Positions 305-18,079 of a DNA stretch of 38,868 nt are shown piece by piece; the first letter of the stretch is position 1, and the number at the start of each line of letters is the position of its first letter. Below the pieces are notes generated by a model. The model was not told where the DNA came from. It saw only the letters and a list, made by a program, of their open reading frames with translations, and ran no database searches. Made by a program: the position numbers and the translations under genes. Source of the DNA: a virus. Location of the stretch: the IMG/VR virus record IMGVR_UViG_3300045988_060923; one strand, 5' to 3'.

Positions 305-1381
305 TTAGCTAATTCTCTGCAATTCCTCCTCAAACATTTCCGCTGCAGATTTATACCCATGGATACGCCGTGGGTATTGATTTATCCAGTTTTCAACCTC
401 CTGGATGTCCTCAGCCGTTCGATCATCAAAATTCGTTCCTTTAGGGACTTTTCTCCGCACCATTTTGTTTGTGACTTCGTTTGTCCCTCTTTCCCAGCTG
501 CTATATGGATGACAGTAATACATCTTTGTTCTCTTTCCTGCTCCTATTGCGGATCTCTCCAGTTCTTCACAATAGGCAAATTCTGTCCCATTGTCTACAG
601 TTATGCTTTTGAATACCGTTTTGAATAATTCTCCCCAGCGTTTTTCCAACCGGTCCACTGCTGCCACCACTTCCTCAGCACTATGGTTATTCAATTTGAA
701 TATGATTTCCGCTCTTGTTTTTCTTTCTGTAAGTGTTAATAATGTATTTTTAGATTTTCCTCGGCACCCCAGAACGCTATCCATTTCCCAGTGGCCAAAC
801 TCCTCTCTGCTGTTTATGATCTCCGGTCTATTTTCTATGCTTTCGCCCGCCTCTGCTCTCTTTTGCTTCTTTACCTTATTATATTTTCTTTTCCTATTCT
901 TTTTTACAGGCAGATTTTTATTGGTTACTCTCAGAAAAATTCCTTTATCTATATAACTGTATACAGTGGTTGTGCATATTTTGGTCTGGAACTCGCTCCA
1001 TCGGCCTGATGCTGTCAATTCTCCTATGATTGCATCCGGACTGTAATCCTCATTTATTATTTTATTCTCAATATAATTGGCTAGCTTGATATCATTTCCT
1101 ATTTTCAGCTGTGTTCCCCTTACTTTCAGGTTTTCATCACATTTTCGTTGTGCCAGATCTGAACTATATCGCATTTCGGTGGTATAGTCGCTGTTTAAGT
1201 GTTCATATCGGCCTCGTTTAAGTTCATTGTAGATTGTACTGCGGTGTACGTGCAAAATCTCAGCAATTTCCACAACTTTATGGCCAGCATTATATAAAGC
1301 CTCCAGTCTGATTCTATCGCTGTGTTTTAATTGTCTACTTCCTTTTTGATTTGCCATACTCCTGCCTCTTTCGTAAAACAA
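305..1381 (-). CDS. IS30-family DDE transposase (probable true start ATG at 1357, MANQKG...)
   Basis: N-terminal HTH (VVEIAEILHVHRSTIYNELKRG). DDE contexts HWEMDSV, ITVDNGTEF and SWERGTNEVTN are typical of IS30 transposases. RBS AAGAGG lies 7 nt before ATG 1357. The ORF-track start 1381 lies inside the upstream terminator stem. Confidence 0.9.
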   Translation of the reverse strand: MFYERGRSMANQKGSRQLKHSDRIRLEALYNAGHKVVEIAEILHVHRSTIYNELKRGRYEHLNSDYTTEMRYSSDLAQRKCDENLKVRGTQLKIGNDIKLANYIENKIINEDYSPDAIIGELTASGRWSEFQTKICTTTVYSYIDKGIFLRVTNKNLPVKKNRKRKYNKVKKQKRAEAGESIENRPEIINSREEFGHWEMDSVLGCRGKSKNTLLTLTERKTRAEIIFKLNNHSAEEVVAAVDRLEKRWGELFKTVFKSITVDNGTEFAYCEELERSAIGAGKRTKMYYCHPYSSWERGTNEVTNKMVRRKVPKGTNFDDRTAEDIQEVENWINQYPRRIHGYKSAAEMFEEELQRIS

Positions 1382-3188: not shown

Positions 3189-4952
3189 TTATTTCACATA
3201 TACATTTCCATCATAGTATGCTGCAATCCATCCAGACGGTACCAGAATCCATATATCACTGCCTACATTCTTGATAGCCTGGCACGTTACCTGAGTACCT
3301 GCATCCAGGCATCCATCATGATCTTTATCATGTCTCCGTCCGTCCAGTGTCAGCTGGCTGTAGCTCTTGGTTGGGCAGCCTGTTCCTGCTCCTGTTCTCA
3401 CTTTCAGTTCAACCTGCAGAGCGTACACTGTTCCCACTTTGTAGGTCGGCGCCTTGTTGGAGCTGTTTCCGGAATTTGATCCAGCCTGTCTGATATACGA
3501 TGAATCTACAAAACCATAAACCTTTTTAGCAATCAGGATATAATACCAATCATGGCCGCTGTTGTCCTTGATCGTATCGCAAATATCCACCAGGTTTCCT
3601 GCTCCCAGTACCGGCCAGGACTTGATGCTTGTGGAGCTGCCTGCCCAGGTCTTAACCGGAACATTGTCCTGTGTGATTTCTCCCACCCACTTCGGAGTCT
3701 TATTGATTCCTCCGGATGCTGATCCGCTGGAAGTCGTTCCGGAGTTCGTTCCAGAATTAGAACTGTTTCCTTTACCGGTTGCTTTGGATGCATAGTCAGG
3801 TATTCCGTATCCACGGATATATCTGCCGTTAATTGTGATCTTTCTTGTTCCGACCAATCCGCCGCCCATGTTGCACTCTCCTATTAGAATCTCTCTGGTG
3901 TTCTTATTGACCTCCAGAACAATTCCAACATGATCCGGCCAGCTTGTACAATCCGTTGTTGCATAATTCGTTCCATCTTTCCAATAATAGAACACGAAAT
4001 CTCCATTATCTGGGATATATGCATCATTTTCAACCCACCGGCCCATTTTCTGGAACAGCTGAATCATATATCCACAGCTGCACTCTCTTGGAATAATGTC
4101 CGTGAGTCCGGCCTTGATTCCCGCTGCAGATGCTCCTGTTGCACAGTAGTCATCTGTTGGTTGTACTTTGTACCCTCTGGCCAATGGCAGGCAGCTATTG
4201 TATAAGTTGATAATGACCATGTGTGATCTATCTGACCGTTTCAGTCCGATCCATCCTCTCATGTTGTTTGCTACCATCTGTCTCAATTCATTCTCTGTCA
4301 TTCCTGCGCTCTCCTTTTCTTCTCCTACATACTGCTTGATCCATTTCACACAGCACTGATGTCTGGACTGATACATCTTGTCTCCAACCTGGTTGTTGTT
4401 TGATGTATCCTGCTGATCCAGGATCAATGATGCATAGACGCTATCCGGCGTGTACGGTTTGGCCGCACGTCCGAAAATTCTTTTTGTCGGTTTCAGGCCT
4501 CCCAGGTGTTCAATCTCGCACCACATCATCTGAGCTGGTACAGTATTGACTCCGTATGCCACGGCCTGTTTGATGTATGTCTCCATCAGCTGTTCAAACA
4601 GCTCATCCTGGCATTTCTTTCCGCTCGGTGTCGTTATGATTGCGATCAGCGCCGCTTTCTCTGTTGCAGATGGATTCCAGCCGATTGCCTCCCAGTCCTG
4701 GCTCAGTCTGGACTCAATTCCTGCAGTGTCAGCTCCGCGAAATGCTCCCGGATCTTCTTTCAGAATCATCTGACAGAGTTTTCTGGCCTCATTGCCATAA
4801 TTCTGTGCCCAGCCCAACGTGCAGGTTTTTTCATTCGCTGAGTTTGCTCCCTTTCCGGCGTATGCTTCATATCTTCGTTTTCCATATGCCTGTCCGCCAG
4901 ACTCTACTGCTCCGATAATATTCGTCAAAATTTCAAGCTGCTTTTTGTCCAT
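3189..4952 (-). CDS. Multidomain endolysin (CHAP/NlpC-P60-like amidase-peptidase plus C-terminal SH3b-like repeats)
   Basis: 587 aa directly after the holins. Cys context DDYCATGASAAG and His context WPDHVGIVLEV resemble CHAP/NlpC-P60. C-terminal WYYILIAKKVYGFVDSSYI and DIWILVPSGWIAAYYDG resemble SH3b. A Ser/Gly/Asn linker separates them. Confidence 0.8.
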   Translation of the reverse strand: MDKKQLEILTNIIGAVESGGQAYGKRRYEAYAGKGANSANEKTCTLGWAQNYGNEARKLCQMILKEDPGAFRGADTAGIESRLSQDWEAIGWNPSATEKAALIAIITTPSGKKCQDELFEQLMETYIKQAVAYGVNTVPAQMMWCEIEHLGGLKPTKRIFGRAAKPYTPDSVYASLILDQQDTSNNNQVGDKMYQSRHQCCVKWIKQYVGEEKESAGMTENELRQMVANNMRGWIGLKRSDRSHMVIINLYNSCLPLARGYKVQPTDDYCATGASAAGIKAGLTDIIPRECSCGYMIQLFQKMGRWVENDAYIPDNGDFVFYYWKDGTNYATTDCTSWPDHVGIVLEVNKNTREILIGECNMGGGLVGTRKITINGRYIRGYGIPDYASKATGKGNSSNSGTNSGTTSSGSASGGINKTPKWVGEITQDNVPVKTWAGSSTSIKSWPVLGAGNLVDICDTIKDNSGHDWYYILIAKKVYGFVDSSYIRQAGSNSGNSSNKAPTYKVGTVYALQVELKVRTGAGTGCPTKSYSQLTLDGRRHDKDHDGCLDAGTQVTCQAIKNVGSDIWILVPSGWIAAYYDGNVYVK

Positions 4953-5003
4953 GATCTTCCTCCAATCAAAGAAAAAGGGACGGTTTCCCGTCCCCTGTTC
5001 CTG

Positions 5004-5219
5004 TTATTTTTCTGTCTCGTCCTCAATGCACGCTGCATCTGTCAGTCCCTCTCCGATGATGTACGCCACCACGGATGCTCCAGCCATAATCAGTGCTGTG
5101 ACCTGTGTTGCTGTGTTCTCAGCTCCACCTGTGGCCACAATCATCATGCTCACGAATGATGCAACTGCAGTCCATAACTTTCTACTTGTCAGTTTTCTTA
5201 CCCAGTTAATTTTCTTCAT
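5004..5219 (-). CDS. Small holin-like membrane protein
   Basis: 71 aa with two predicted TM segments. The N-terminus MKKINWVRKLTSRKLW resembles phiLC3-type holins. RBS GGAGGAA. It sits between the holin and the endolysin. Confidence 0.6.
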   Translation of the reverse strand: MKKINWVRKLTSRKLWTAVASFVSMMIVATGGAENTATQVTALIMAGASVVAYIIGEGLTDAACIEDETEK

Positions 5220-5643
5220 TTCTATGTTCCTCCTCTGATTTCTTTGTTAAAATCTCTATTGCTTTTGTGATCTGTGGCGGCATCGGAATCCCCATCAGAC
5301 CCGCATTCTCCACAATGCTGATAGCCTCATTGGATATAAATCCGATAATCACGGCGTCACGTATGTAGTTCACATGAATCAGCATATCGAACCGGTACGC
5401 CATCAGCACGATCAGCAAAATCACGGCTTTTCTGCAGAGTCCTTTGAATCCCGCCTTGCTTTCCAGTGCTCCGTTTTTCGTCTTTGTAGACTTGTGGAAC
5501 ACTCCGGCCACAATCAAGCCGGTCAGGTAGTCTATGCCGATCAGAATCATCAGCGTCTGCAATCCTGTATCCCAACCACCCAAAAGTGCTGCTATGAATC
5601 CGCCGACCATTCCAACCGTGGTGCATAACTGCTCTTTCATCAT
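5206..5643 (-). CDS. Holin, toxin-secretion/phage-lysis (TcdE / Phage_holin_4) family
   Basis: GGWDTGLQTLMILIGIDYLTGLIVAG...FISNEAISIVENAGLMGIPMP matches the family signature. RBS GGAGG lies 9 nt before ATGATG at 5643. Confidence 0.85.
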   Translation of the reverse strand: MMKEQLCTTVGMVGGFIAALLGGWDTGLQTLMILIGIDYLTGLIVAGVFHKSTKTKNGALESKAGFKGLCRKAVILLIVLMAYRFDMLIHVNYIRDAVIIGFISNEAISIVENAGLMGIPMPPQITKAIEILTKKSEEEHRNEEN

Positions 5644-5666
5644 CTTTCTACACCTCCCCTCTGCCC

Positions 5667-5837
5667 TCATACATCATCCACATCGTCCACATCAGCGTAT
5701 GGCCTGCAGTAGTATTCCGTTATATCCAGCTCGTCCTCAATCTGTTCCAGCGTCTTGCTGCTCTGTCCTCTGATATACAACCGCAAGTCCGTGATGTGCG
5801 ACCATAGCCTTGATATAATTCTCAGCTTAGTCATCAT
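5667..5837 (-). CDS. Hypothetical small protein (56 aa, below the ORF-track cutoff)
   Basis: Hand translation gives MMTKLRIISRLWSHITDLRLYIRGQSSKTLEQIEDELDITEYYCRPYADVDDVDDV*. The start overlaps the upstream stop (ATGATGA) and the ORF fills an otherwise empty gap. Confidence 0.4.
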   Translation of the reverse strand: MMTKLRIISRLWSHITDLRLYIRGQSSKTLEQIEDELDITEYYCRPYADVDDVDDV

Positions 5838-6040
5838 TCCTCTGTGATCTCTCCCATTCCGGATCTAACCAGAATATCTTTCACTTTTGTCTTTAAGAGA
5901 CGTGGAACTCTTTCATACATTTTCTTTGCGTCCTCTACTGTCTCCTGGTTCATAATTTCCTGTGCCCATAACATTGCCATCATTTCAATACCATCCTTTC
6001 CTGTACATAATAAAAATAAATTGATTAGTAACTTACGCAT
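5834..6040 (-). CDS. Hypothetical small protein (68 aa; possibly XkdX-like)
   Basis: ORF in the fibre-to-lysis gap, translationally coupled to its neighbours. The XkdX resemblance is weak and by eye only. Confidence 0.5.
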   Translation of the reverse strand: MRKLLINLFLLCTGKDGIEMMAMLWAQEIMNQETVEDAKKMYERVPRLLKTKVKDILVRSGMGEITEE

Positions 6041-6389
6041 AAACCGCCTCCGACATTTCCAGCAGGCATGATTTCAGCATCCTGATTGTTTCCTCCTGCT
6101 CCTGAACCTTTTGTTCCAGTGTCTTTTCTTTCTGTGGCTCATATTCCAGATATTTCTCCGGATTTTTCTCCACAGCTTCACGGTTTACGTTTTCCGCTTT
6201 TTCCCGGAATTGGTGGAAATCATATTCCCAGAACGTATCTGTCACAGTGATATACTGTTCTTTTTCTACCATCTGCTGATTTTCTTCTGTAACTTCCTGC
6301 CCGTTTAGGCAGATTGTCACGTCCACCATTCCGTTATCAAGCGGCTGCCAGCTGACCGCCGGCTGTTCTGTTGTGAATCTTGCTTTCAA
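6033..6389 (-). CDS. Hypothetical acidic coiled-coil protein (118 aa, TTG start)
   Basis: Strong RBS AAGGAGGG lies 6 nt before TTG at 6389. It overlaps the RT 3' end by 53 nt. It is Glu-rich and not Avd-like. Confidence 0.6.
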   Translation of the reverse strand: MKARFTTEQPAVSWQPLDNGMVDVTICLNGQEVTEENQQMVEKEQYITVTDTFWEYDFHQFREKAENVNREAVEKNPEKYLEYEPQKEKTLEQKVQEQEETIRMLKSCLLEMSEAVYA

Positions 6390-7563
6390 TGCTTACCCTC
6401 CTTTTCGCGTATTTCATCAGTTGCTCTATTCCATACTTCTTTTTGAAGTGATTGGAATCTGAATTTTTGAACCACCCATAATATGAAATGCAGCGGTACG
6501 CCAAATCTAGTGCTATTTCCATACGCCGCTGCACCTGTTTTCTCAATCTCAGATATGCCCGTCTTGCCCGGAGGAATATGCTCCGGCGGACTTCTGTGTG
6601 GTCCCTGTAAATTTTGTATCCCATCATATCAATGCAATCTCCGTGATGCTTTCCGTCTTTTCCGATATAGTCAACCTGGAACAGTTTCCAGTTCGGTTTT
6701 ATCTCCAGACCCAGCTCATCTCTGAAAAATCGGATCAGCATGAGCATGGCTTTTTTGACGTCTGCCTTTCGTGGTCCTAGGATCAGGATATCGTCCATAT
6801 AAAAGATAATTTTGTAGAACAGTCTTGTCCGTTTCTCCTGGCCACGTCTTTTCTGCACCTTAAAGAGCTTTTGCTGTGCATAGTGGTAGGCAAAACTGAG
6901 GTAGTAATTGCATAGCCACTGGCTCAAATATGAACCGATGGATAGCCCCTGCTTGTACGATGCAATCAATGTCTCCACTAAATAAAGCAGGTCATCATTT
7001 TTGACCTGCTTTCTCAGAAATCTCATGAGCTTTCTTGTGTTAATAGATGGATAACAGTGCCGCACATCCGCCTTGGCTCCTGCCCTCGTTTTGTCCGGAT
7101 TCTTCCGAATCCATCTCTCTATTGCATTCTTTCCGTATACCTGGCCACGGCCCGGCACACTAGCGCATTGATATTTTCCTATCTTTCTTTCAAATAATTC
7201 TTTCAGAGCATTGACAGCTACATAATTGTATATCTGCTGTTTTATGCTCTCCACGCCTATCTCCCTGAGCTTTCCGGAGTTTCCGTCATACCTCATGGAG
7301 TAGTGTATTTCCGGGAAATGAACATCACGCTCCTTGATTTCCCTTGCCAGATCTTCCGCTGCTCTTTCCAGCAACGGGTCCACATTGCTCCTTTTCTCCT
7401 GGATCAGTCTGCTCACAGCCCTGACGGACAGTGGTTGACCGGTTTGGTATCCGGCCAGGAACCCTGCCACATCACGCCGTTTCCATTTATCTGAAAAACA
7501 TTCCAGCATACAGGCCATGATCCAGTCTTTATCCAGTCGTATATTTTTACAGTATCGTTTCAA
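6337..7563 (-). CDS. DGR reverse transcriptase
   Basis: YMDD box (IIFYMDDILILG). Motif-4 LSIGSYLSQW fits the IGxxxSQ signature of DGR RTs. Other RT motifs are CASVPGRG and KADVRHCYPSI. It lies immediately downstream (minus strand) of the TR. Confidence 0.9.
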   Translation of the reverse strand: MKRYCKNIRLDKDWIMACMLECFSDKWKRRDVAGFLAGYQTGQPLSVRAVSRLIQEKRSNVDPLLERAAEDLAREIKERDVHFPEIHYSMRYDGNSGKLREIGVESIKQQIYNYVAVNALKELFERKIGKYQCASVPGRGQVYGKNAIERWIRKNPDKTRAGAKADVRHCYPSINTRKLMRFLRKQVKNDDLLYLVETLIASYKQGLSIGSYLSQWLCNYYLSFAYHYAQQKLFKVQKRRGQEKRTRLFYKIIFYMDDILILGPRKADVKKAMLMLIRFFRDELGLEIKPNWKLFQVDYIGKDGKHHGDCIDMMGYKIYRDHTEVRRSIFLRARRAYLRLRKQVQRRMEIALDLAYRCISYYGWFKNSDSNHFKKKYGIEQLMKYAKRRVSIESKIHNRTAGGQLAAA

Positions 7564-7779
7564 CTGTGAGTCCTCGTTTCTTGATACAGGAGTTTCCGGT
7601 TTTTCTACTCACTCCGCGTCATGGCCTACTGCACCATGCGCCCGTCCAGTCAGGCTCCTTGGCTCCCAGCTGGGCGGTGTGGCTTCAATCGTATTTTGGG
7701 GATATGCCCCACGCACCTGCTTTCCGGTGGCTCCGTTCCTACAGAGCGAAATGTAACGCTGAAATTCAAATAAATTTCA
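7564..7779 (-). ncRNA. TR-to-RT spacer, probable non-coding part of the DGR RNA
   Basis: 216 nt with no credible ORF, GC-rich relative to its flanks. It contains the palindrome CCCAGCTGGG (7665-7674) and a hairpin TGGGG-atatg-CCCCA (7697-7711). The position matches the spacer RNA of characterised DGRs. Confidence 0.45.
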
Positions 7780-7888
7780 AGAAAATCCAGAGACGATATT
7801 CCAGTTCGTGTTCGACCAGCCATTGTTCGCATTCAGAATCCAGAGGCCAGCATTCGCGCCATTGTTCAAATTGCCCAGCGCAAGCCAC
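7780..7888 (-). repeat. DGR template repeat (TR)
   Basis: 7787-7888 aligns without gaps to 7998-8099 (offset +211), 90/102 identical. All 12 mismatches are at + strand T, which is adenine on the minus (TR) strand. In frame, the TR carries 10 AAY codons. Confidence 0.9.
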
Positions 7889-7951
7889 AGAGGAAACCGC
7901 CCGTTTAGCGTTACAAGTCCGTTATTTATTTATAATGGGAAAGCCCCTCTG

Positions 7952-10261
7952 TCAGGCCGTTGCCTGCCATTCACCCCTGGTGCCGTTTGGAGAAACGCCA
8001 GAGACGATAAGCCAGTGCGTGCCCGACCAGCCAAGGTTCGCAAACAGAATCCAGAGGCCAGCATACGCGCCATTGTACAAACTGCCCAGCGCAAGCCACT
8101 CTCTCTGTCCAGATGTTCCTGCATCTGTATACAGTCCATCAGCAAATCCAGTGGTTGAGCCTCCGCCTACTTTCGTAGGAATCATGATTCCCAGGTTTGG
8201 GTCTGTTGTTTCTTCCGTGATATATTTCCAGGATGCTGCTGTATAGGCCACCTGTGCGATAGCCTTTTTATAATTTGCCCGCACCGTTGCAATGTTGCTG
8301 GACAGTGTGCTGGCATCCTCGCATACATAGACATCTCTTGCCGGATTCCCGTCCGCACCGGTAACAATATCCATGACCACATTTCCCAGAACCTCATAGG
8401 CTCCGATACAGGTCTCAATGCCCTGGATCTTGTATGGATCTTTTCCGTTGGTGTTGCTGTTCGGAGATCCATCCGAACCGGCCACCTCATCAGTTGCTCC
8501 GCTGTGCCATGGCATTGTTGTGATCCATGTGGTCAATGTCGTATCGAATGCCTCCGGAGCATCCACATATACTGCTGCATTGCTGTCATCCACGTCCTCA
8601 ATCTTTGTGACTTTGACGCTGTATGCTTTGTTGTGTATATAGGAAAAATACCGGTCTTTGTTTGTGTTTGAGCCAACGTCTCCGATGGAAACATATGAGC
8701 CGATCACATAACCAGCCGCCTGTGCCTTTGTTAGTACCACTCTCATCACTCCGGTTTCTTCTACCAGGTTCTGGTTCTGATTGCTGTATGAGGTACATCC
8801 GGCCATGATGCTCTGGCTGTGTGTAGTTGCATATTTAATAATCATCATGAGCTGTCTATAGAACAGATCCCAGCTTGTCGTGCCGCAATAGTGACCGCCC
8901 AGCTTGTGCATATAGGTTATCATTCCGGTGTAGCTGACCGGATTTCTCGCCTGTGTTGCCTGGCAGCCATTGGCCGGTGCCAGGCCTTTTGATGAATACG
9001 GCACTCCATCAATGTCTCCCGCCGCATACTTGGCATGGATCATGAATGGGCTGATTGTTCCGTCCGGATTGATAGATTCTTTCATCGGATACGGTGTCAG
9101 CTCTGTCTGGCTGTCAGAATAATGATATAGGACTGCCTCGGTAGTGTCCTCGATACCGAACCAGGCGCTCATTGTAACCTCTCCGACCTGCACCTTGCCG
9201 TACTTTGTAAATCCAATCTGGCCCTCCAGGGCATCTACATGGTTGAAACCATTCTCGTCTACAGAAAAATTGCAGGTAAAATGATGAAATAGGCCATACT
9301 GAGCATAATCATCTCTGCCCTCTGTTCTTCCCACAGATGGCTCCGCAACCATATTCTCATTGGCATTCATTTTCACGCCCACAGGGCTTGTGGATGTCTC
9401 CCATTTATAAATCTTTGTTGTGAATACCTTTCCGTTTCTCCTGAGTGCAAAATAATTGGAGAGTGCATTTTCAACGCCCCCTCCGTTCTGCTTAATCAGA
9501 TCAATCTGTGTCTGGCCAGCTGTTTCAATTTTCGTGACGCTGGCTGCTGTATTCTGTTTCAGATCTTTTGACGCCTGCTGTGCATTGTTCAGGTCAGTCT
9601 CCAGTCCTGTTTTGATCTGGTCAGCATTCTGGACCAGATTCTGCATGGTTGTGATGTTTTCTCCGGATGTTTTGATGCTTTTGTCCAGTTTTGTTTTGGC
9701 TTCTCCAGCCGCTGTCACATCTGCCTCCAGACTTCTTTCTGCCTGTCCTGCTGCCGTGATATCCGCCTCAAGGCTCTGCTTTGCTTTTCCTGCAGCTGTG
9801 GTATCCGCCTCCAGTGTCTTGGCCGCCGTGTTAGCCGCCGTGGTATCTGCCTCCAGTGTCTTGGCCGCCGTGTTGGCCGCCGTGATGTCTGCCTCCAATG
9901 TCTGCACCGTCTTTGTGGCTGCTGTGTTCTTTTCTCCCAGGCTCTTGTCCAGGGAGGTTGCTGTTGTGTTCTTCTTTTCCAGGTTTTCTGCCAGTGCAGT
10001 CCCTGTGTTCATTTTAGCCGCCAGGTCTTTCTGGACTTCCTTTGCCTGCTGTAAATTGCTGTTAAATGCCTGCTGTATCTGCTGGTTTTTTGTCACGTCT
10101 GCATTGATTGACTTTTGTGCCGCCTGGATGTCCGCCTTTGTCTGATTGTATGTATTATTCTCATCAGACACCTCATTGATTGCAGAAACAATCGCAGCTC
10201 TGACGTCCTTTCCTTTCTTGGCGCTGGCAATCTGTTCCGTGTACTTCCTTACGTTTGCCAT
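7952..10261 (-). CDS. Tail fibre / receptor-binding protein, DGR target (C-type-lectin-like variable C-terminus)
   Basis: 769 aa after Tal, with RBS AGGAGG. The N-terminal coiled coil has 14-aa repeats. The C-terminal GxW-rich VR has a pattern typical of CLec-fold DGR targets. Confidence 0.85.
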   Translation of the reverse strand: MANVRKYTEQIASAKKGKDVRAAIVSAINEVSDENNTYNQTKADIQAAQKSINADVTKNQQIQQAFNSNLQQAKEVQKDLAAKMNTGTALAENLEKKNTTATSLDKSLGEKNTAATKTVQTLEADITAANTAAKTLEADTTAANTAAKTLEADTTAAGKAKQSLEADITAAGQAERSLEADVTAAGEAKTKLDKSIKTSGENITTMQNLVQNADQIKTGLETDLNNAQQASKDLKQNTAASVTKIETAGQTQIDLIKQNGGGVENALSNYFALRRNGKVFTTKIYKWETSTSPVGVKMNANENMVAEPSVGRTEGRDDYAQYGLFHHFTCNFSVDENGFNHVDALEGQIGFTKYGKVQVGEVTMSAWFGIEDTTEAVLYHYSDSQTELTPYPMKESINPDGTISPFMIHAKYAAGDIDGVPYSSKGLAPANGCQATQARNPVSYTGMITYMHKLGGHYCGTTSWDLFYRQLMMIIKYATTHSQSIMAGCTSYSNQNQNLVEETGVMRVVLTKAQAAGYVIGSYVSIGDVGSNTNKDRYFSYIHNKAYSVKVTKIEDVDDSNAAVYVDAPEAFDTTLTTWITTMPWHSGATDEVAGSDGSPNSNTNGKDPYKIQGIETCIGAYEVLGNVVMDIVTGADGNPARDVYVCEDASTLSSNIATVRANYKKAIAQVAYTAASWKYITEETTDPNLGIMIPTKVGGGSTTGFADGLYTDAGTSGQREWLALGSLYNGAYAGLWILFANLGWSGTHWLIVSGVSPNGTRGEWQATA
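7991..8099 (-). repeat. DGR variable repeat (VR), 3' end of the fibre gene
   Basis: This is the counterpart of the TR. It encodes WLALGSLYNGAYAGLWILFANLGWSGTHWLIVSG, against TR-encoded WLALGNLNNGANAGLWILNANNGWSNTNWNIVSG. It ends 40 nt before the stop codon. Confidence 0.9.
9717..9926 (-). repeat. Five tandem 42-bp (14-aa) coding repeats in the fibre shaft
   Basis: Units start at 9717, 9759, 9801, 9843 and 9885. Units 9801-9842 and 9843-9884 differ at 2 nt. They encode (T/S)LEADxTAAxxAxx heptad-like repeats. Confidence 0.85.
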
Positions 10262-10263
10262 GT

Positions 10264-10461
10264 TTAACCTCCTAACTTCATCGTATGGGCTGTATCTTCC
10301 AGAGCTACCGTTTCCAGATCCTCCGGATGTCCTGGTCTCGCAAGTCTTTTTTCTTCCGGTGTCTCTTGCCAGATATCATATCCTTGGACGCAATACAGCG
10401 CCAACTCATACGGTCTTATCATTGTTGCTCTGTTGTTTTTCTTCGCTGAGAATGTCTGCAT
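10264..10461 (-). CDS. Hypothetical protein (65 aa)
   Basis: RBS GGAGGAG lies 6 nt before the ATG. Located between Tal and the fibre. Confidence 0.55.
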   Translation of the reverse strand: MQTFSAKKNNRATMIRPYELALYCVQGYDIWQETPEEKRLARPGHPEDLETVALEDTAHTMKLGG

Positions 10462-10772: not shown

Positions 10773-13700
10773 CTATCCCATCAATAATCCATTTCTATAG
10801 GTTTCATCTGTCCACGACCATTCTATAGCTCCGTTTCCGATGTCTCTTATATTCGTGATTTTTCTGCGCGTTCCGGTGTAAGTCGTGTATACTGTTCCAG
10901 CGTTCCAGCTGGTAGCTGTACACAGCTTTCCTTTGATATCCACGCAAGTGTTTCCCATGATTCTCAACGTGTGTTCGTTGGTGTTGTTGTAAGCTCCGTT
11001 GAAATCAATGTATCCATAGGTCGAACCGCTGTATCCTCCAGTGATTTCTCCATAGCTCATTTTTATCCACCAGTCTCCATTTTTCGCCTCGAAACTTCCC
11101 TGACAACTTGCACCTTTCATGGTTACATATCCAGATGCCGTAAGCGTAAAGTTTGTGGAACTGATGCTGATTCTGTTCGACTTAATTGAAATAGAGCCAG
11201 ACTCTGCACTGATCTCTGAGGAAATTTTTCCTTTTGACACTCTCAGCTTGATAGCATCCGCATTGACCCGGATACTGCTTTTCAGTGTATCCTCTGCTTT
11301 TTTCGCTCTTGTGACTTCCGCCGTGATATCGTTGGCTGTCAGTTTCAACTGAGACTCAGTATAGGCCGCCGCATATCCCATGATTTCCACGTCTGTGATG
11401 TATACCGTTGTATTGGCCACGTTATTGTAGAAATATGTATAAAAATATGGCGGTGTTGCAACATTCTCAAATTCAAATGTTTTCCAGGATGTGCTCAAGT
11501 CTCCTGCATTTGTATAGTGTGACGTTCCATCTATTGTCACTCTGATTCTGGCTGTTTTCTCCTGCCCTGATGCACAGGCCGCTTTGAACCTTACTCTGAC
11601 TTTTCCCTTTTTGTCGAACGGTTTCTGATACCATCGTAGATAATAGGTGCTTGTCGTGTTCGTGATCTGAGCACATGATTTTCCGGAAAACGTGTTCTGT
11701 GTGACCTGTGTATTGTTAGACCGGTACCAGCCAGTGAACTTATCTTCGCTATCTGAAAAAGATCCGTTTGTGCAATAGTTATGACTGTTGCTCTCATACA
11801 TCTCAGATACCTGCTGAGTGATCTTTCCGGCCTCTACCGTGATTCTTGCGTCCACATCGTCAATCAGTTCTTTCACGTTTCTTAACACCCGGATATCCGT
11901 CAGATAGATCTGCTGTCCGGATGAGCCAGTAATAGAAAGATAAAAGGATCTTGTCCCGGCGCTTGTGTAGGTAACGGTTCTTTTCAGTGTGTACCATTTA
12001 TCACAGTTTACCGTTGACAGGTACTGTGAGATTGTATTTCCGGAAAAGCCAAAATAACAATAGCTCGGTTTCTTTCCAGTAGGCGTGTACACCTTAACCT
12101 CTATCTCATAGGTGCCTGCCGGCAATGTTCCCAGGTTCTGCTGGATTGATGCTGTGTTTCCGTCTGTTTTGGTCATCAGGATGGCGTTCATATTCCCGGC
12201 TGTGCTCTTTGCCACTGTGGCATTGGTCGATGCCGTGAACTTTGAAACGTCCAGACTCTGGTTGTCTCCGCCTTTGATATAATCATACCGGTTCGTGATG
12301 CTTTTCTGATCCGTAACCGCCAGCTGTATCTTGTCCTCCATCGACTTGATGCTAGTTGTGATAATTTCTTTCACAGCGGTTTCCCGCTTGTCTGTATAAT
12401 CATTGGCATTCTTTGTGGCCTGTGAGAATTTCCCCTCCAGTTCGGATTTATACTCAACCGTCAGCTTTTCTGAGCTGACAGAGTTGGCCGTGATCCGTTC
12501 GCCTATAATCTGGCCGTCCAGTGTCATTCCCACTGTGTACGGTCCTGCATATCCGTTGTGACTGCCTCCGATGCCCTCCTTGTTTATCTGCAGAATCTTT
12601 GTGGCCTTTTCTTTGCTCGGAGCGTCCATGTATAGCTCTCTGAGCCAGAGTCCATTTTCGTCAAATTCCTCCAGATGATATCCTCCGGCCGTTCCTGTCA
12701 TTTTTGCTGTCAGGTTATCAATGGCCGTCCGGATCTCCTGATTCTGGATTTTCCGGCGTTCCTCAGCCGTTGCTGTGACTCCGGAATAGATTCTGCTCTG
12801 CTGTTCTGTATAGGTCAGCTTTCTGTTCTCTCCCAGTGTCAGTGTTGCTCCGTCTGGTTTCTGCAGAGGAATCTGCATCTCCATGACCGGAAAAACTCTG
12901 TTCATTCCGTATGGCTTGGCTCTGCATTGAATCCGGTCTCCGCACTCAAAAGCATCATAGTCACTATCCATCATGGACAGGTCTACCGCCGTCAGTTCCA
13001 GTGTCAGATTCTCAAACTGGTTATCCTCCAGCCACTCTTTTCCTTTTCTGAGCAGGTTTGATGGCTCTGTTACGTCCTGCCAGGTGTTAGTTATCCACAC
13101 CCACCCAAAGTTTTCCACAGCACTCTGGTTATAAATGTAATTTGATCCACCATTTACGCTGGTAATATCCACATATTTCTCCAGGGCGTCAATCTCTGAC
13201 TCTCCCTCCAGACGTGCACCCAGCGGAATCAACGCTGTGGCAATGTTCTCCGCCGTTCTGCTCAGTGAGTAGTCCAGCATATTCAGCCCGAACTCAATCG
13301 GCTGGCTGCAATACTTTCCGTATTCTTCCAGCGTTATCCAGTCCAGATATAGCTTGTCATTCTCATGCCGGAGTTTCAAATATCCTCCCAGTTTCTCCAC
13401 CAGTTTCTCTCTGATCGCTTTCAGCGTGTTCTCAAAGTTGGTGTACCTGTATAAGGAATCGTTTGCATCTGTAATGGTCACTTTTCCCAGATAGATCTTT
13501 TTTCTATCCTCTACCTGGTTGTTGTGAATATCCAGAAACGTCTCCAGCATCTGCCGTGGTGTCATATCATGGTACTCAGCTTGTGGCTGTATGGAGTCCG
13601 CCAGGAAACTCATTGCGCCGGCGCAATAGACATTTTTGTTTCTGTAACGGTCTACTTTCGGCTGTTTCCGGACCTCTCCATAGAACAATTCTGTTGTATC

Positions 13701-13883
13701 CCGGAACACACTGACCATGCTGCTCCGGTTCTTGATCTTGTCATACAGTGGGTTGTTTGGCGGTACCGAAAACTCAAAGGTTCCCGCATATCCCGTCTGC
13801 AGGTTTAGCGTTGGATTGGTCAGTACCGCCTCTTTATCTCCTGGATAGTAGAGGGTCTGACCGTCCATTTTAACTTTATACAA
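10773..13883 (-). CDS. Tail-associated (Tal-like) minor structural protein / baseplate hub
   Basis: 1036 aa directly after Dit. The N-terminus (MDGQTLYYPGDKEAVLTNPTLNLQTGYAGTFEFSV...) resembles the siphovirus 'minor structural protein N-terminal region'. The C-terminal part is beta-rich. Confidence 0.75.
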   Translation of the reverse strand: MYKVKMDGQTLYYPGDKEAVLTNPTLNLQTGYAGTFEFSVPPNNPLYDKIKNRSSMVSVFRDTTELFYGEVRKQPKVDRYRNKNVYCAGAMSFLADSIQPQAEYHDMTPRQMLETFLDIHNNQVEDRKKIYLGKVTITDANDSLYRYTNFENTLKAIREKLVEKLGGYLKLRHENDKLYLDWITLEEYGKYCSQPIEFGLNMLDYSLSRTAENIATALIPLGARLEGESEIDALEKYVDITSVNGGSNYIYNQSAVENFGWVWITNTWQDVTEPSNLLRKGKEWLEDNQFENLTLELTAVDLSMMDSDYDAFECGDRIQCRAKPYGMNRVFPVMEMQIPLQKPDGATLTLGENRKLTYTEQQSRIYSGVTATAEERRKIQNQEIRTAIDNLTAKMTGTAGGYHLEEFDENGLWLRELYMDAPSKEKATKILQINKEGIGGSHNGYAGPYTVGMTLDGQIIGERITANSVSSEKLTVEYKSELEGKFSQATKNANDYTDKRETAVKEIITTSIKSMEDKIQLAVTDQKSITNRYDYIKGGDNQSLDVSKFTASTNATVAKSTAGNMNAILMTKTDGNTASIQQNLGTLPAGTYEIEVKVYTPTGKKPSYCYFGFSGNTISQYLSTVNCDKWYTLKRTVTYTSAGTRSFYLSITGSSGQQIYLTDIRVLRNVKELIDDVDARITVEAGKITQQVSEMYESNSHNYCTNGSFSDSEDKFTGWYRSNNTQVTQNTFSGKSCAQITNTTSTYYLRWYQKPFDKKGKVRVRFKAACASGQEKTARIRVTIDGTSHYTNAGDLSTSWKTFEFENVATPPYFYTYFYNNVANTTVYITDVEIMGYAAAYTESQLKLTANDITAEVTRAKKAEDTLKSSIRVNADAIKLRVSKGKISSEISAESGSISIKSNRISISSTNFTLTASGYVTMKGASCQGSFEAKNGDWWIKMSYGEITGGYSGSTYGYIDFNGAYNNTNEHTLRIMGNTCVDIKGKLCTATSWNAGTVYTTYTGTRRKITNIRDIGNGAIEWSWTDETYRNGLLMG

Positions 13884-14633
13884 TTACAGTGACCCCCTCC
13901 TGTACCGGATCGTGAGTGTGCCCGTTCCAGTGAAACTGAGCACCACGTCCTCTGTATTGACTGTGATATCCGCAAAACGGTTCTTTCCTTTCATCAGTGT
14001 GTAGGTTTCCCCATTTGCTGTCATTTTGAGTCCCGCTGGTCCCAGAACGCTCACGTATATTGTCGGAACGAACGGCATCTGATCCGGAACGATAGTGTAC
14101 GTCTTTGTCTCTCCGGTCCTTACCGTGATTTCTGTACCCTCGTCTATGATCCCAGTCTCAAAATCAAACGAATCCCACAACCAGTCCTCTGTAGAATCCG
14201 CCACATTGTACTTGTATGGGTCAGCTTTCGGAATGGCCAATGTGAATGTGCCTATCTCCCTATTTCTGTCGTATCCCTGGATAGATGCTCTGCCTGTCCA
14301 GTAGAACCTAGAGTCATTGTCGAAAATGACCTTGATTTCTCTGCCCTCTACAAGGTTTCTAAGATCTGAGATAAAAATATCCCAGTTGTCTCTTGGTTTC
14401 TTACCGCCCAGCTCGATGCTGATCGGACGGTTTTTGAATATGCGGCGGCCCGTGATGGCTTCTGAGAAATCCAGAAAGCCATCCGCTCCAGGCACGTCCA
14501 CATAATAGTTTTCCTGTTCCACATCTCCAATATAATCATTGTTTCCTATTGCCAGTCCCCAGTCATTCAGAGTGTGGAATCTTTCGCCGGTGGCCACGAT
14601 CTCAATCGTTGCTCCGTTTGTAATTGCGTCCAT
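13884..14633 (-). CDS. Distal tail protein (Dit)
   Basis: 249 aa immediately after the tape measure, start overlapping the TMP stop. Size and position are canonical for Dit. Confidence 0.7.
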   Translation of the reverse strand: MDAITNGATIEIVATGERFHTLNDWGLAIGNNDYIGDVEQENYYVDVPGADGFLDFSEAITGRRIFKNRPISIELGGKKPRDNWDIFISDLRNLVEGREIKVIFDNDSRFYWTGRASIQGYDRNREIGTFTLAIPKADPYKYNVADSTEDWLWDSFDFETGIIDEGTEITVRTGETKTYTIVPDQMPFVPTIYVSVLGPAGLKMTANGETYTLMKGKNRFADITVNTEDVVLSFTGTGTLTIRYRRGSL

Positions 14634-17600
14634 TATAGGAATCCTCCCTCCTCTGCCAGGATGCCCAGCTCTCTATCCATATCTCTTGCCAGTTTCGCTG
14701 CTACACCTCCGGTATCCCATTCGATGTTTAAGCTCTTGGCCAGGTATGGCAGATACTGAGCCAGCAATGATGTGATATTCATGATGGCGTTTGTCTGTTT
14801 TGCGTTGCTCTGGTCCATCATTGCGTTTGCATTGATGGTCATGTCTTTGCTCACGCCCTCGATTGCATCAGCCACCACTGATTTACTCTTTTCGATGCCT
14901 TTAGCTAATCCCTGCATAAAGTCCGGCATCCAGGACTCATACTCTGTCAGTGGTCCCTCATCAGGCACTGAGAAATGCAGAAATGAGCGGATTGTAGATG
15001 CCACGTCTGACACGGCATCTCTGACTCTGCCAATGGCGTTCCTGATTCCGGAAACTATTCCGTCTATGAAATCTCGTCCCCACTGTACCGCCTGGCTTGG
15101 TAGTGATGTGATAAAGCTGATTGCTGACCAAAATCCGTTCCGCACAGTTGATCCCAGACTGCTCAGTGCGTTTCCGATTCCGGAAACCATATTGTGGAAC
15201 GCCTGCACCGCTGACTCTTTCAGATTTTGTGCGGTTTGAACCACACTGCTCTTTAAATTCTCCCAGCTGTCGTGTGCGTTCTGCTTCATTTCCTGCCACT
15301 TCTGGTATGCAGATTCTTTCAGATTCTGTAGCGCCTGGATTGCAGAATCTTTCAAATTTGTTGCTGTTTGAACCACAGAATTTTTCAAATTTTCCCAGGT
15401 ATTGATCGCCGTCTGCTTTATCATGTCCCACAAACTTGACAGAGTGTCCATAAATCCTGTAACCAGAGTGACCACATGAGTGACCAATCCCTCTGCAAAT
15501 GATGTGACCACCTGCTGTATTCCAGACCAGATCTGTGATGCAGCGCCCTGGATATTCTGCCAGATATTTTGTGCATCGGACGCCAACTGAGTGAAATCTC
15601 CCGTTACCAGGTCGATCAACAAAAGCACCGGTGCAAGTATCGTATTTTTCAGCAACTCCCAGGCTCCTGATGCAATCTCCGTCAGACCTGACCAGATGCC
15701 CTGCAGTGTAGTGACTGCATTCTGCCACAATTCCTGTATGGTTGTTACGATTGATGACAGCACAGGGTTTTCCATCATGGACTGCCAGATTCCTGAGAAG
15801 AAATCAGCCACCTGCTGCCAAATTCCTGCCCACCACTCCGGGATGCCCTGGAACCATGAAACCACGTTCTGCCATGCCTGCGGTATTGTATCCGTAAAGA
15901 ATGAACAGATTGACTGCCAGATCTGAGAAAAGAAATCTCCGACCTGCTGCCAGATTCCTGCCCACCACTCCGGGATGCTTTGAAATTTTGATACCAGACT
16001 GTCCCATGCCTGCGGTATTGTTTCGGTAAAAAATGAACAGATCGACTCCCACACCTGAGAGCATTTTTCTTTCACTTTCTCCCATATTTCTCCAAACCAC
16101 TCCGATATAGCGCCCCAGTTTTTCACAATGGCTATAATCGCGGTAATTGCTGCAGCTACACCGGCAATGATTCCGATAATCGGCCCCAATGTTGCCACGC
16201 CTAAAATACTTACGATATTTATCACGGCCAATATGGCAGGGGCTAGAGTGGTAAAGGCGGCAATCACAGCCCCCAGTATAACCACGAAATTCTGTACCGG
16301 TTCTGGTAATTTTCCGAAAAATTCTCCTATCGTTTTTATTCCAGAGGCAATCGGCGGTATGATATTGTTTGCCAGATTCATCAGTGCCTCTCCCAGCGGA
16401 ACCAGACTCTGCTCCAGCTGTCTCATGCTTGCCTCAAACGTCTGGGAGTCTGTCGTGGACTGGTCGAACATATTCTCTGCTGATCCAGCCACGTCATCAT
16501 AGGTGTCCCCTACCGTAGTGAGCGACTCGATAAACTTCGCATTGCCGTCCTCGGCCATTGTACCGAATGCCAGCGCTGCTTTGTTCAGTTTGTCCTGCTG
16601 GTTCTCTGTGTTTTGAATATCTGTCACAATGGCATCAATAACATCTTTCTGTGTAGCTCCGCCCTGCTGCCACTGTTTGAATACATCCTCAACTTCTTTG
16701 CTCCAGCCTCCGGTTCCGGCTTGTACCTCCCCGGTCTTTTCATCAATTTTGCTCAGGGAATCCGCTATTGTTCCATCAACCAGTCTGGTCGTGACTTCGT
16801 TAATGGCATCGTTTACCTTGTCCAGGTTATACGCTCCATTGTCCAGTCCGTTCTGCAATAGTTGGAAATACTCCTGAGCGGAATAACCGGCCTGAGCGAA
16901 CTTTCCAGAATACTCTGAGAGGTTATCCCCCAGCTCGTTTGTCTTATCCAGGCCATTCTGTGTACCCTTTACGATATAGTCCATGGCCTGCTGTGCCGTG
17001 AGTCCGTACTGCTCCATGAGGCTGTTGACACCTCGGAGAGTCTCATTCATGTCAATTCCATACAGCTCATCCAGCGTGATTGCCTGCTCTGTCAGATGTG
17101 TCAGTGTAGTCTCATCCAGATCTTTCAGGTTCTTTTTGACCGTAATGACTGCATTTGATACAGAGTCCATGGAATCTCCCACGCCCTCAGCATATACGTC
17201 CTTGATGACTCCGGCTGTTTCCTCAGCCGCTTTCCCGGTTTCTCCAAAATAAGTGGACGCTTTTACTGTGGCATCTTGTGTCTCCAGAAAAGCGCCCTTT
17301 GCTTTGTCTCCTAATTCTGTTATTTTATCCCCCAGTCCAGAAAGCTGATCGGCAGCCTCCATCAATGCGCCTGCTGAGAGGGTTTTCCCCATCTCGTCCA
17401 GTTGTTCTGATGTGTTGTCTGCCTGTGTTCCTGCTTCTTTTAAGTCCTGGATGAGGTTTTTGATTGCCTGTCCATCGTCAACCGTGTCCAGAGCGTCTGT
17501 CATCTGTTTGATGTCAGCTTTTCCGTCTGTGGCTGATCTTCCAATCTTTTCAATGGCAAGTTTCAACTGATCTGATGATGCAGATCCGTTTTTGATTGCT

Positions 17601-18079
17601 GTTACCAGCTTACTGCCCAGGACGTCCGCATAATCATCCACGTCCGCTCCCAGAGCATCAAATAATTTGCTGAGACGTTCGGTATTTGTAGCCAGTCTGT
17701 CCTGTTCGGTGTTTAATCCGTCCAGTTCTGACTGATATCGGCTCAATGTTGCCTTGGTTGCCTCAACTTCTCGCTGGAAAGCCATGTACTCCTCCTGACC
17801 AATCTTTCCGGCCTCCAGAGCTGCTGTCACATCTTTCTGTGCCGCCTCCAGCGTGTCCAATTTGCTTGCTGTGTCTGCTATCGCATTTTTCAGTAATTCC
17901 TGTTTTTGCGCTACCAGCACCGTATTTGATGGATCTAATTTCAGCAGAGTGTTCACGTCTTTCAGCTGTGCCTGAGTATTTTTCAGCTTGTCGTTTACAC
18001 CGCTTAGGGCTTTCTGCAGGCCTGTGGTATCTCCGCCGATTTCAATCGTTATTCCTTTGATATTCCGTCCTGCCGCCAT
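14633..18079 (-). CDS. Tape measure protein
   Basis: 1148 aa, helical, with a central hydrophobic segment (VILGAVIAAFTTLAPAILAVINIVSILG...). It has Trp-rich repeats and follows the G/GT chaperone. RBS AAGGAGGTG. Confidence 0.9.
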   Translation of the reverse strand: MAAGRNIKGITIEIGGDTTGLQKALSGVNDKLKNTQAQLKDVNTLLKLDPSNTVLVAQKQELLKNAIADTASKLDTLEAAQKDVTAALEAGKIGQEEYMAFQREVEATKATLSRYQSELDGLNTEQDRLATNTERLSKLFDALGADVDDYADVLGSKLVTAIKNGSASSDQLKLAIEKIGRSATDGKADIKQMTDALDTVDDGQAIKNLIQDLKEAGTQADNTSEQLDEMGKTLSAGALMEAADQLSGLGDKITELGDKAKGAFLETQDATVKASTYFGETGKAAEETAGVIKDVYAEGVGDSMDSVSNAVITVKKNLKDLDETTLTHLTEQAITLDELYGIDMNETLRGVNSLMEQYGLTAQQAMDYIVKGTQNGLDKTNELGDNLSEYSGKFAQAGYSAQEYFQLLQNGLDNGAYNLDKVNDAINEVTTRLVDGTIADSLSKIDEKTGEVQAGTGGWSKEVEDVFKQWQQGGATQKDVIDAIVTDIQNTENQQDKLNKAALAFGTMAEDGNAKFIESLTTVGDTYDDVAGSAENMFDQSTTDSQTFEASMRQLEQSLVPLGEALMNLANNIIPPIASGIKTIGEFFGKLPEPVQNFVVILGAVIAAFTTLAPAILAVINIVSILGVATLGPIIGIIAGVAAAITAIIAIVKNWGAISEWFGEIWEKVKEKCSQVWESICSFFTETIPQAWDSLVSKFQSIPEWWAGIWQQVGDFFSQIWQSICSFFTDTIPQAWQNVVSWFQGIPEWWAGIWQQVADFFSGIWQSMMENPVLSSIVTTIQELWQNAVTTLQGIWSGLTEIASGAWELLKNTILAPVLLLIDLVTGDFTQLASDAQNIWQNIQGAASQIWSGIQQVVTSFAEGLVTHVVTLVTGFMDTLSSLWDMIKQTAINTWENLKNSVVQTATNLKDSAIQALQNLKESAYQKWQEMKQNAHDSWENLKSSVVQTAQNLKESAVQAFHNMVSGIGNALSSLGSTVRNGFWSAISFITSLPSQAVQWGRDFIDGIVSGIRNAIGRVRDAVSDVASTIRSFLHFSVPDEGPLTEYESWMPDFMQGLAKGIEKSKSVVADAIEGVSKDMTINANAMMDQSNAKQTNAIMNITSLLAQYLPYLAKSLNIEWDTGGVAAKLARDMDRELGILAEEGGFL
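15775..16040 (-). repeat. Tandem 132-bp (44-aa) Trp-rich repeats inside the tape measure
   Basis: CCTGCTGCCA recurs at 15811 and 15943 (132-bp period). The peptide units are QVWESICSFFTETIPQAWDSLVSKFQSIPEWWAGIWQQVGDFFS and QIWQSICSFFTDTIPQAWQNVVSWFQGIPEWWAGIWQQVADFFS. Boundaries are approximate. Confidence 0.75.

Follow-up and report, generated by a model that had tools for sequence, protein, structure and literature searches.

To our knowledge, no natural system other than diversity-generating retroelements (DGRs) achieves targeted protein hypermutation in prokaryotes, and gut phages have them so often that one more comes as no surprise. Here we describe a cassette from the IMG/VR virus record IMGVR_UViG_3300045988_060923 that is very probably an active DGR of Avd-less "target-TR-RT" architecture, carried by a temperate siphovirus-like phage of human-gut Lachnospiraceae; the whole stretch of DNA analyzed, 38,868 nucleotides (nt) long, is called the window throughout. 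DGR-type reverse transcriptases (RTs) are recognized by RT motifs 1-7, with [LIV]GxxxSQ in motif 4, and by YxDD. A fixed non-identity between the 3′ ends of the variable repeat (VR) and the template repeat (TR), referred to as initiation of mutagenic homing (IMH) and IMH*, sets the direction of transfer. Avd, in turn, is a basic four-helix-bundle pentamer of about 128 amino acids (aa; Pfam 23S_rRNA_IVP, TIGR02436), and the slot between VR and TR is the usual place of its gene.

Not every described element has Avd. In the survey of Wu et al., 29% of the curated DGRs lack accessory genes and follow the target-TR-RT order of "Architecture A"; such elements imply an Avd-independent mechanism, and for the roughly one quarter of DGRs without Avd this mechanism has yet to be explained (Wu et al. 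2018, PMC5758913). The RNA side is best described for the Bordetella element, where cryo-EM revealed a template-primer duplex between the 3′ end of the TR and the spacer (for cis-priming) as well as a duplex formed by the sequences on either side of the TR, in a survey of Avd-containing DGRs only (bioRxiv 10.1101/2023.10.23.563531). On the DNA side, phage DGRs have a GC-rich hairpin of 7-10 bp with a 4-nt GRNA loop, located 4-34 bp downstream of the VR (PMC3240598).

Repeat pair, reverse transcriptase and natural diversification

The cassette lies on the minus strand, where the target gene (10261->7952) is followed by the TR and then by the RT gene (7563->6337), with gaps of 63 nt between target and TR and 216 nt between TR and RT. 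Its core features are listed below.

7952-10261, minus strand: target (variable protein) gene, 769 aa, with an N-terminal coiled coil containing 14-aa repeats and a C-terminal domain of ~230 aa that ends in the VR
7998-8099, minus strand: VR, covering target codons 722-754 of 769, of which 13 are diversified
7986-8009, minus strand: candidate IMH, the invariant 3′ end of the VR region, TATCGTCTCTGG-CG-TTTCT-CC-AAA, with four fixed differences from the TR
7775-7888, minus strand: TR, with the mutagenic template at 7787-7888 (23 adenines) and the candidate IMH* at 7775-7798
6337-7563, minus strand: predicted DGR reverse transcriptase, 408 aa, isoelectric point (pI) 9.9, with a TTG start, a GAGG ribosome-binding site and the motifs YMDD and SIGSYLSQ

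A repeat search returns the pair as a direct repeat of 114 nt (7775-7888 and 7986-8099, offset by 211 nt), and there is no second VR-like copy within the window. The VR is situated within the 3′ end of the coding target, and the TR is noncoding and intergenic, 216 nt upstream of the RT start. Compared base by base and without gaps, 7787-7888 and 7998-8099 have 12 mismatches, each at a plus-strand T, that is, at an adenine of the coding strand. Differences thus affect 12 of the 23 TR adenines and none of the 79 other TR bases, and the chance of all 12 mismatches landing on the 23 adenines is 1.0e-9 (hypergeometric test). An initial annotation, made from the letters of this DNA, had proposed a DGR on the basis of exactly these 12 positions. 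Its open reading frames (ORFs), gaps, coordinates and counts were all reproduced, and the substitutions at non-adenine positions that it named as evidence to the contrary are absent from the computed alignment (0/79). In frame, the TR offers 10 AAY codons plus ATT, ACG and ATC, and 8 of the 10 Asn codons are recoded in the VR of the window, just as annotated.

Toward the 3′ end the picture changes. Further differences are found at 7786/7997 (A to C) and 7785/7996 (T to G), with two more at 7779/7778. The former two had been interpreted as the boundary between IMH and IMH*. Nearly all related loci keep the same differences (VR GGCGTTTC versus TR GGATTTTC), and the fixed 3′-end non-identity of VR GGCGTTTCTCCAAA and TR GGATTTTCTTGAAA in nearly all loci fits an IMH/IMH* pair.

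The RT matches Pfam RVT_1 (E = 3e-12) and PHROG 1423 "reverse transcriptase" (E = 6.5e-74). Its closest chain in the PDB is the Bordetella DGR RT, bRT (8ub7; E = 2.6e-7), where SIGSYLSQ aligns with PIGSLTSQ and YMDD with YMDD, so both motifs on which the initial annotation had relied (YMDD and IGxxxSQ) are present and in register with those of bRT. The TTG start is supported by the GAGG ribosome-binding site and by an ATG in the same alignment column of distant relatives. With RT homologs from cultured phages, the alignment to the window RT begins only at its residue ~82-93, which suggests that the N-terminal ~90 aa are specific to this RT clade.

The RT search yielded 26 viral contigs and 8 genome loci. 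Prophages with a 99% identical RT reside in Coprococcus intestinihominis CLA-AA-H190 and Dorea acetigenes Sanger_03, and more distant ones in Hespellia and Blautia. Throughout the related loci, an invariant, noncoding TR precedes the RT on its 5′ side. Over 27 TR/VR pairs (26 related loci and the window), mismatches fall 325 times on adenines versus 31 times on other bases, and 10 of these 31 stem from a single decayed locus, labeled L019. Eight loci share a TR identical to that of the window and have eight distinct VRs, with 86 of 88 mismatches at adenines (A to T 33, A to G 33, A to C 20). Genomes with 99% identical RTs and identical TRs bear different VRs.

The strongest evidence comes from the proteins. 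A query with 7955-9481 (minus strand) gave more than 5,700 matches in a protein database nominally clustered at 90% identity, and the best 120 of these (97-100% identity), 116 of them full-length, were used to study variation of the VR. All of the 116 listed full-length proteins differ in the VR segment. The high-entropy columns number 13 (727, 729, 730, 733, 738, 740, 742, 743, 747, 748, 749, 751 and 752) and are exactly the 13 adenine-containing codons of the TR. Of the residues observed in them, 1504 of 1508 can be reached by adenine-only substitution, and as many as 15 amino acids, the complete and stop-free NNY set, are seen at the AAY codons. Within residues 261-769, pairwise diversity per site amounts to 0.68 at the 13 columns versus 0.0073 at the remaining 496. 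In our judgment, this comes as close to proof of ongoing mutagenic retrohoming in the phage lineage as sequence data allow. The DGR interpretation of the initial annotation is hence carried by the adenine-specific mismatches, the kind of RT, the recurrence of the pattern in related loci and natural variation that is limited to adenine codons.

Two side observations concern these databases and relatives. Near-identical entries differ mainly in the VR, so DGR targets seem to inflate clustered databases and swamp homology searches. In one relative (L037, ENA ERZ28579003 scaffold_29, 5096-7203), the RT and its neighbors were called as single genes despite in-frame stops under translation table 11, which suggests a phage with stop-codon reassignment that bears a related DGR.

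RNA and DNA elements around the repeats

The noncoding parts of the cassette contain several further elements, again all on the minus strand.

7564-7774, minus strand: structured spacer RNA from the TR to the RT start (211 nt), with six or more hairpins
7907-7915, minus strand: 5′ arm of the TR-enclosing duplex, UGUAACGCU, pairing with 7752-7760
7752-7760, minus strand: 3′ arm of the TR-enclosing duplex, AGCGUUACA, pairing with 7907-7915
7950-7969, minus strand: inverted repeat (TG-G-CAGGC AACG GCCTG-A-CA) that can form a hairpin or cruciform, at the end of the target ORF and with the stop codon in it

For the spacer, RNAalifold on 17 loci gives 42 pairs, of which 19 have compensatory changes, versus 8.9 +/- 1.7 compensatory pairs in the shuffle control, where 0 of 500 shuffles reach the observed values. 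Likewise, 95% of the spacer cells are paired, compared to 39-51% with slid partners. The minimum free energy fold of the single sequence (7550-7900) is no better than that of shuffles (z = -0.65), so the structure is evident only from covariation. Rfam returned nothing, neither for the whole window at gathering thresholds nor for 7400-8200 at E <= 1.

Two long-range helices complete the RNA. The 9-bp duplex enclosing the TR has compensatory changes in 6 of its 9 pairs, with 96.5% of the cells paired versus 14-45% in slid controls. Complementary arms of a different sequence can be discerned by eye around the TR in three relatives (L036, L037 and L040) and in the phages Arawn and FP_Epona. The second helix is an invariant one of 7 bp, connecting UUUCUUG (7778-7784, inside the IMH*) with CAAGAAA (7577-7583, just before the ribosome-binding site of the RT). 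We infer from these duplexes that the logic of the Bordetella RNA, including cis-priming through UUUCUUG:CAAGAAA, may apply here.

In the DNA fold, the hairpin at the end of the target ORF lies 16 nt past the end of the TR/VR homology, at the position of the target hairpin of BPP-1 (PMC3240598), and consists of a 7-pair stem with one internal mismatch. It is kept in 14 loci, and in four of them (L018, L019, L022 and L026) the stem is a perfect one of 7-8 bp. The loop reads AACG in the window and GACA, GGCA or GGTA (GRNA-like) in relatives.

Directly past the target stop (7930-7948, minus strand) stands a small GGGG-CTTT-CCC(A) stem followed by TTATAAATAAATAA, which is kept in all relatives. 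Such a stem could terminate or attenuate transcription between the target gene and the TR RNA; a simple terminator scan did not flag it. A scan of 6200-8200 for sigma-70 promoters and terminators detected nothing upstream of the TR, with overall counts like those of shuffles, for which reason we claim no promoter for the TR RNA.

Combining these elements, we propose the following mechanism. An RNA from roughly 7915 to 7577 (minus strand) would comprise the 114-nt TR, closed by the 9-bp duplex of its flanks, and the multi-hairpin spacer of ~210 nt. The RT encoded just downstream would bind this TR RNA and make cDNA, misincorporating opposite the 23 template adenines. This cDNA would then replace the VR at the 3′ end of the 769-aa target gene, in a replacement that is bounded 3′ by the IMH, which differs from the IMH* at fixed positions, and that is probably helped by the hairpin at the ORF end. 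As a result, 13 codons would be re-randomized, the ten AAY codons to 15 amino acids each and never to a stop, and ATT, ACG and ATC to 4 each. Since these codons are part of the C-terminal domain of a likely receptor-binding tail fiber, host recognition would change.

Target protein, accessory genes and phage context

The target is most likely a tail fiber or receptor-binding protein, as the initial annotation had it, given the position of its gene and fold matches to predicted phage fiber proteins. The gene order runs from the tape measure (14633-18079) over Dit (13884-14633), a Tal-like protein of 1036 aa (10773-13883) and a 118-aa ORF to the target and, finally, holin/endolysin. No family annotates it directly: the target belongs to PHROG 17147 (function unknown), has no Pfam domain, and its homologs are named "hypothetical protein".

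The C-terminal domain is widespread. The last 230 aa recur at the C-terminus of 585 protein clusters (at the 50% identity level), whose listed members range from ~100 to 1,400 aa; those inspected have a VR-like pattern in common. Sequence and profile searches of the PDB with the target gave no meaningful match, and 39 diverse C-terminal domains had no Pfam match, FGE-sulfatase and DUF1566 included. An AlphaFold2 (AF2) model of residues 261-769 from a shallow two-lineage alignment was unusable (predicted local distance difference test score, pLDDT, 27). With 38 diverse representatives, the last 230 aa reached a pLDDT of 76.8, with the VR segment below 50. Foldseek found no match for this model in the PDB (best E about 1), and hhalign of the domain against Mtd of BPP-1 was negative (probability 0.9%), so the C-type-lectin fold that the initial annotation had proposed to look for is not confirmed. 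In BFVD, the model matches uncharacterized siphovirus proteins as well as tail fiber and tail collar fiber proteins from crAss-like and other phages. It also matches a model named after TvpA of T. denticola (E = 3e-6, TM score 0.49-0.55 over 150 columns), the VR segment of the query having a pLDDT below 50. These predicted folds lend modest support to the fiber assignment.

The alternative that survives best is that the target is some other surface protein of the virion or lysogen (for decoration or adhesion, for example), so that the DGR varies something besides host range. The uninformative family, the lack of a Pfam domain and the "hypothetical" homologs would agree with this, and the upstream Tal-like protein could itself bind the receptor. 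We nevertheless consider it unlikely, given that the series of tape measure, Dit, Tal, small ORF, target and lysis genes is typical of a siphovirus fiber or receptor-binding gene, that the target has a long N-terminal coiled coil, that its C-terminal domain is spread over 585 clusters in the manner of modular receptor-binding tips, and that the fold matches include proteins named tail fiber and tail collar fiber.

The coiled-coil shaft deserves a remark of its own. Five tandem 42-nt (14-aa) repeats are located at 9707-9917 (target codons ~115-185), and 4 of the 120 near-identical relatives measure 727 aa instead of 769 aa, the missing 42 aa corresponding to three repeat units. The length of the shaft may thus vary by repeat number.

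A fossil DGR, which once worked and is now inert in this phage lineage so that the VR differences are old, is very improbable. Decay does occur in the family, as L019 shows (8 TR adenines and 10 non-adenine mismatches), and in L001 the target is fused directly to the TR. On the other hand, 99% identical RTs with identical TRs go with different VRs, no two of the 116 listed near-identical targets have the same VR whereas diversity per site is ~90-fold lower in the remainder of the domain, and the window retains an intact RT ORF with its motifs as well as the TR adenines and the RNA structure. These two relatives are worth recording in themselves. In L019 (IMGVR_UViG_3300029822_000353, ~3270-3395), the "TR" with its few adenines has no IMH*-like end and looks like a template that has decayed or been overwritten. 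In L001 (IMGVR_UViG_3300045988_001944, 3640-5790), the target ORF runs directly into the TR without a separate VR, owing to a 211-bp VR-to-TR deletion; this is either a real recombination that would leave a truncated, TR-encoded fiber tip, or a repeat collapsed by the assembler.

Finally, an ordinary duplication or recombination cassette beside an unrelated RT (of a group II intron, a retron or the Abi/DRT type), as hinted at by weak matches to a group II intron maturase model (54 bits versus a cut-off of 300) and to defense RT models, has a negligible probability in view of the adenine-only divergence (p = 1e-9) that is repeated across about 25 related loci, the noncoding and invariant TR that is always 5′ of the RT, the IGSxxSQ motif, a DGR RT as the closest solved homolog, the lack of any intron RNA, retron ncRNA or other family in Rfam, and the model comparison proposed in the initial annotation, in which retron, group II intron and defense RT models stay under their family cut-offs or far under PHROG 1423.

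While the three-part layout of the initial annotation stands, the absence of the canonical accessory gene avd had gone unremarked in it. A Pfam scan covered the 115 window ORFs of 75-200 aa from both strands, and Avd (23S_rRNA_IVP) is absent from the families listed, which are 25 of the 26 matched; neither NCBIfam (including its four-helix-bundle model) nor Pfam recognizes an accessory family in the ORFs beside the cassette. The defining features of a DGR that can be tested in silico are found here; the exception is Avd, which marks the canonical subtype (BPP-1-like, Architecture B) and is not universal. Judged by its gene order, the element can be assigned to the already known Avd-less target-TR-RT class.

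Next to the RT, a small gene draws the attention.

6033-6389, minus strand: ORF118, candidate accessory gene, 118 aa, acidic (pI 4.5), with an AGGAGG ribosome-binding site and a start that overlaps the 3′ end of the RT gene

ORF118 adjoins the RT in all 33 related loci that reach past the 3′ end of the RT, down to 61% RT identity, and it also stands beside a 45% identical RT in L036, a different prophage. A search of 50,697 phage records gave three matches, each abutting an RT of 35-40% identity; two are on contigs of 84 kb and 176 kb. L037 contains a short ORF between VR and TR whose C-terminus, judged by eye, is similar to that of ORF118. The protein itself shows no similarity to Pfam, NCBIfam or PHROG families, and its family profile does not resemble Avd of BPP-1 (hhalign probability 0.3%). 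Against the PDB, the profile has only weak leucine-zipper-like matches to Max (E about 0.01), which we took as coiled-coil noise. A role of ORF118 in the DGR is suggested by this linkage, and we put it forward tentatively. ORF118 could also be a fiber-associated gene of the XkdW/XkdX type that merely stays linked, an idea that is weakened by the fact that all three matches in the phage database abut an RT in otherwise very different records.

The 176-kb phage contig (L040, MT835469.1) offers a further observation. Its RT is 40% identical to that of the window and is followed 3′ by an ORF118 homolog, and an RNase H (4150-4659; PF00075, E = 6e-12) is encoded between its VR and TR. The accessory genes that Wu et al. 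list (2018, PMC5758913) do not include RNase H as a stand-alone protein. A tblastn search with this RNase H found no match in the window. The window does encode an RNase H-like protein of its own (36252-36752, minus strand, 166 aa; PF00075, 26.5 bits, barely over the cut-off). Its gene is part of the replication module and 29 kb away from the cassette; it may be connected with the DGR, and we claim no such role.

As a speculative joint reading that we hold with considerable doubt, a clade of ~400-aa RTs might retrohome without Avd by means of a self-scaffolding spacer RNA and an ORF118-family protein, with the VR placed on a fold distinct from the C-type lectin (CLec) and immunoglobulin (Ig) folds. 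The spacer RNA would then be larger and retain the TR-enclosing and priming duplexes of the Bordetella type, and the ORF118 family would be a previously undescribed one that seems to occupy the avd slot in one relative, with RNase H taking that slot in another.

Several points count against the interpretation of the cassette as an active DGR acting on a fiber tip, and we gather them here. The class assignment of the RT rests on motifs and on family and structure matches. Covariation is neutral on the UUUCUUG:CAAGAAA helix because the helix never varies. The hairpin of the window has a mismatched stem and a loop, AACG, that departs from the GRNA consensus of phage DGRs. The VR domain is without a Pfam, PDB sequence or Foldseek match to a solved C-type lectin or Ig domain, leaving the usual fold of DGR targets unconfirmed. 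The Pfam scan of the 115 ORFs listed 25 of the 26 matched families, one being unseen. Lastly, activity is evident at the level of the phage lineage rather than for the exact copy in the window.

As for the phage itself, a megablast of 6000-10400 against the 50,697 phage records returned zero matches, and a tRNA scan of the window found none. An outward-facing transposase of 358 aa (305-1381, minus strand) lies at one end of the phage, with HTH_38 and rve matches, the latter at 28.1 bits and thus under the cut-off of 32.6 bits. At the other end lies an 82-aa remnant (38531-38776, minus strand) with HTH_38 only, and no integrase other than the end transposase was found among the ORFs scanned. 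These ends resemble those of the IS30-bound "IScream" prophages, broad-host-range gut prophages that are flanked by a full, outward-facing IS30 transposase and, on the opposite side, by a decayed remnant of IS30, and that have no further integrase (PMC12247996); membership of the window transposase in IS30 is putative. Coprococcus and Dorea harbor near-identical copies of the phage, and one target protein that is almost the same has been assigned to Mediterraneibacter faecis. With the same phage (99% RT identity) in several genera of Lachnospiraceae and a putative IS30-type transposase at its end, diversification of the fiber tip may add to host breadth.

Comparison with described elements

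The likeness to BPP-1 (mtd-avd-TR-brt) is extensive. Both elements have the VR at the 3′ end of a tail receptor-binding gene (putative here) and the TR upstream of the RT, and both show adenine-specific mutagenesis of 23 TR adenines in mostly AAY codons. Shared as well are the IMH/IMH* differences, an inverted repeat where the target ORF ends and the RT motifs IGSxxSQ and YMDD, along with (as predictions here) a structured TR-RT spacer, a duplex of the TR flanks and a short helix between the 3′ end of the TR and the spacer. The differences start with avd, which stands between VR and TR in BPP-1 and was not found in the window (with 25 of the 26 matched Pfam families listed). The RT measures 408 aa versus 328 aa in BPP-1, being extended at both termini and carrying an insertion before YMDD; the spacer measures ~211 nt versus ~140 nt; the hairpin loop reads AACG versus GAAA; and the target domain is unlike Mtd (hhalign probability 0.9%).

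The VR domain can also be compared to TvpA and the C-type-lectin fold. It resembles them in its C-terminal VR, rich in Gly, Trp and Asn-derived positions, and in the one BFVD model named from TvpA. It differs in having no Foldseek match in the PDB (best E about 1), no FGE-sulfatase or DUF1566 domain and no PDB sequence match.

Closer in layout is Architecture A1 (Wu et al. 2018), as in Faecalibacterium phage FP_Epona and Butyrivibrio phage Arawn, which has the same target-TR-RT order. The A1 core order is found here without a Pfam or NCBIfam match to an accessory gene (avd, HRDC or MSL), with CH1 compared by description only. In both of these cultured phages, the cassette lies between tail-fiber genes and the holin/endolysin module, no Avd is annotated, and the hosts are Firmicutes. 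Their RTs are ~30% identical to the window RT and do not have its N-terminal ~90 aa, no homolog of ORF118 is found in them at E <= 1e-3, and the target of FP_Epona is annotated as Mtd-like, unlike that of the window.

For ORF118, the nearest described counterpart is CH1 of the Bacteroides "Lineage 3a" DGRs, a motif-less protein of 160-169 aa (pI about 4.7) that occurs only where avd, HRDC and MSL are lacking (Wu et al. 2018, PMC5758913). Compared by description only, ORF118 has the small size, the acidity (pI 4.5) and the lack of motifs in common with it, and likewise goes with an RT clade that has no Avd. It differs in length (116-118 aa versus 160-169 aa) and in distribution (Clostridia phages versus Bacteroides).

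To a specialist, a DGR on the fiber of a gut Firmicutes phage will be unsurprising, and its relatives have probably been counted already in large surveys. Its value lies in an unusually clean record of natural variation, a covarying RNA scaffold in an Avd-less element and the lead provided by ORF118. Thousands of natural VR variants of one target in public data amount to a ready map of tolerated sequence space. The cassette is a compact, clearly active Avd-less example that combines a covarying RNA with a candidate new accessory gene and near-identical prophages in cultured strains. Compared to the elements described so far, the new detail, as far as sequence comparison reveals it, is a covarying spacer RNA outside Rfam, a covarying duplex that encloses the TR, an invariant helix between IMH* and spacer, and ORF118 as a candidate accessory gene.

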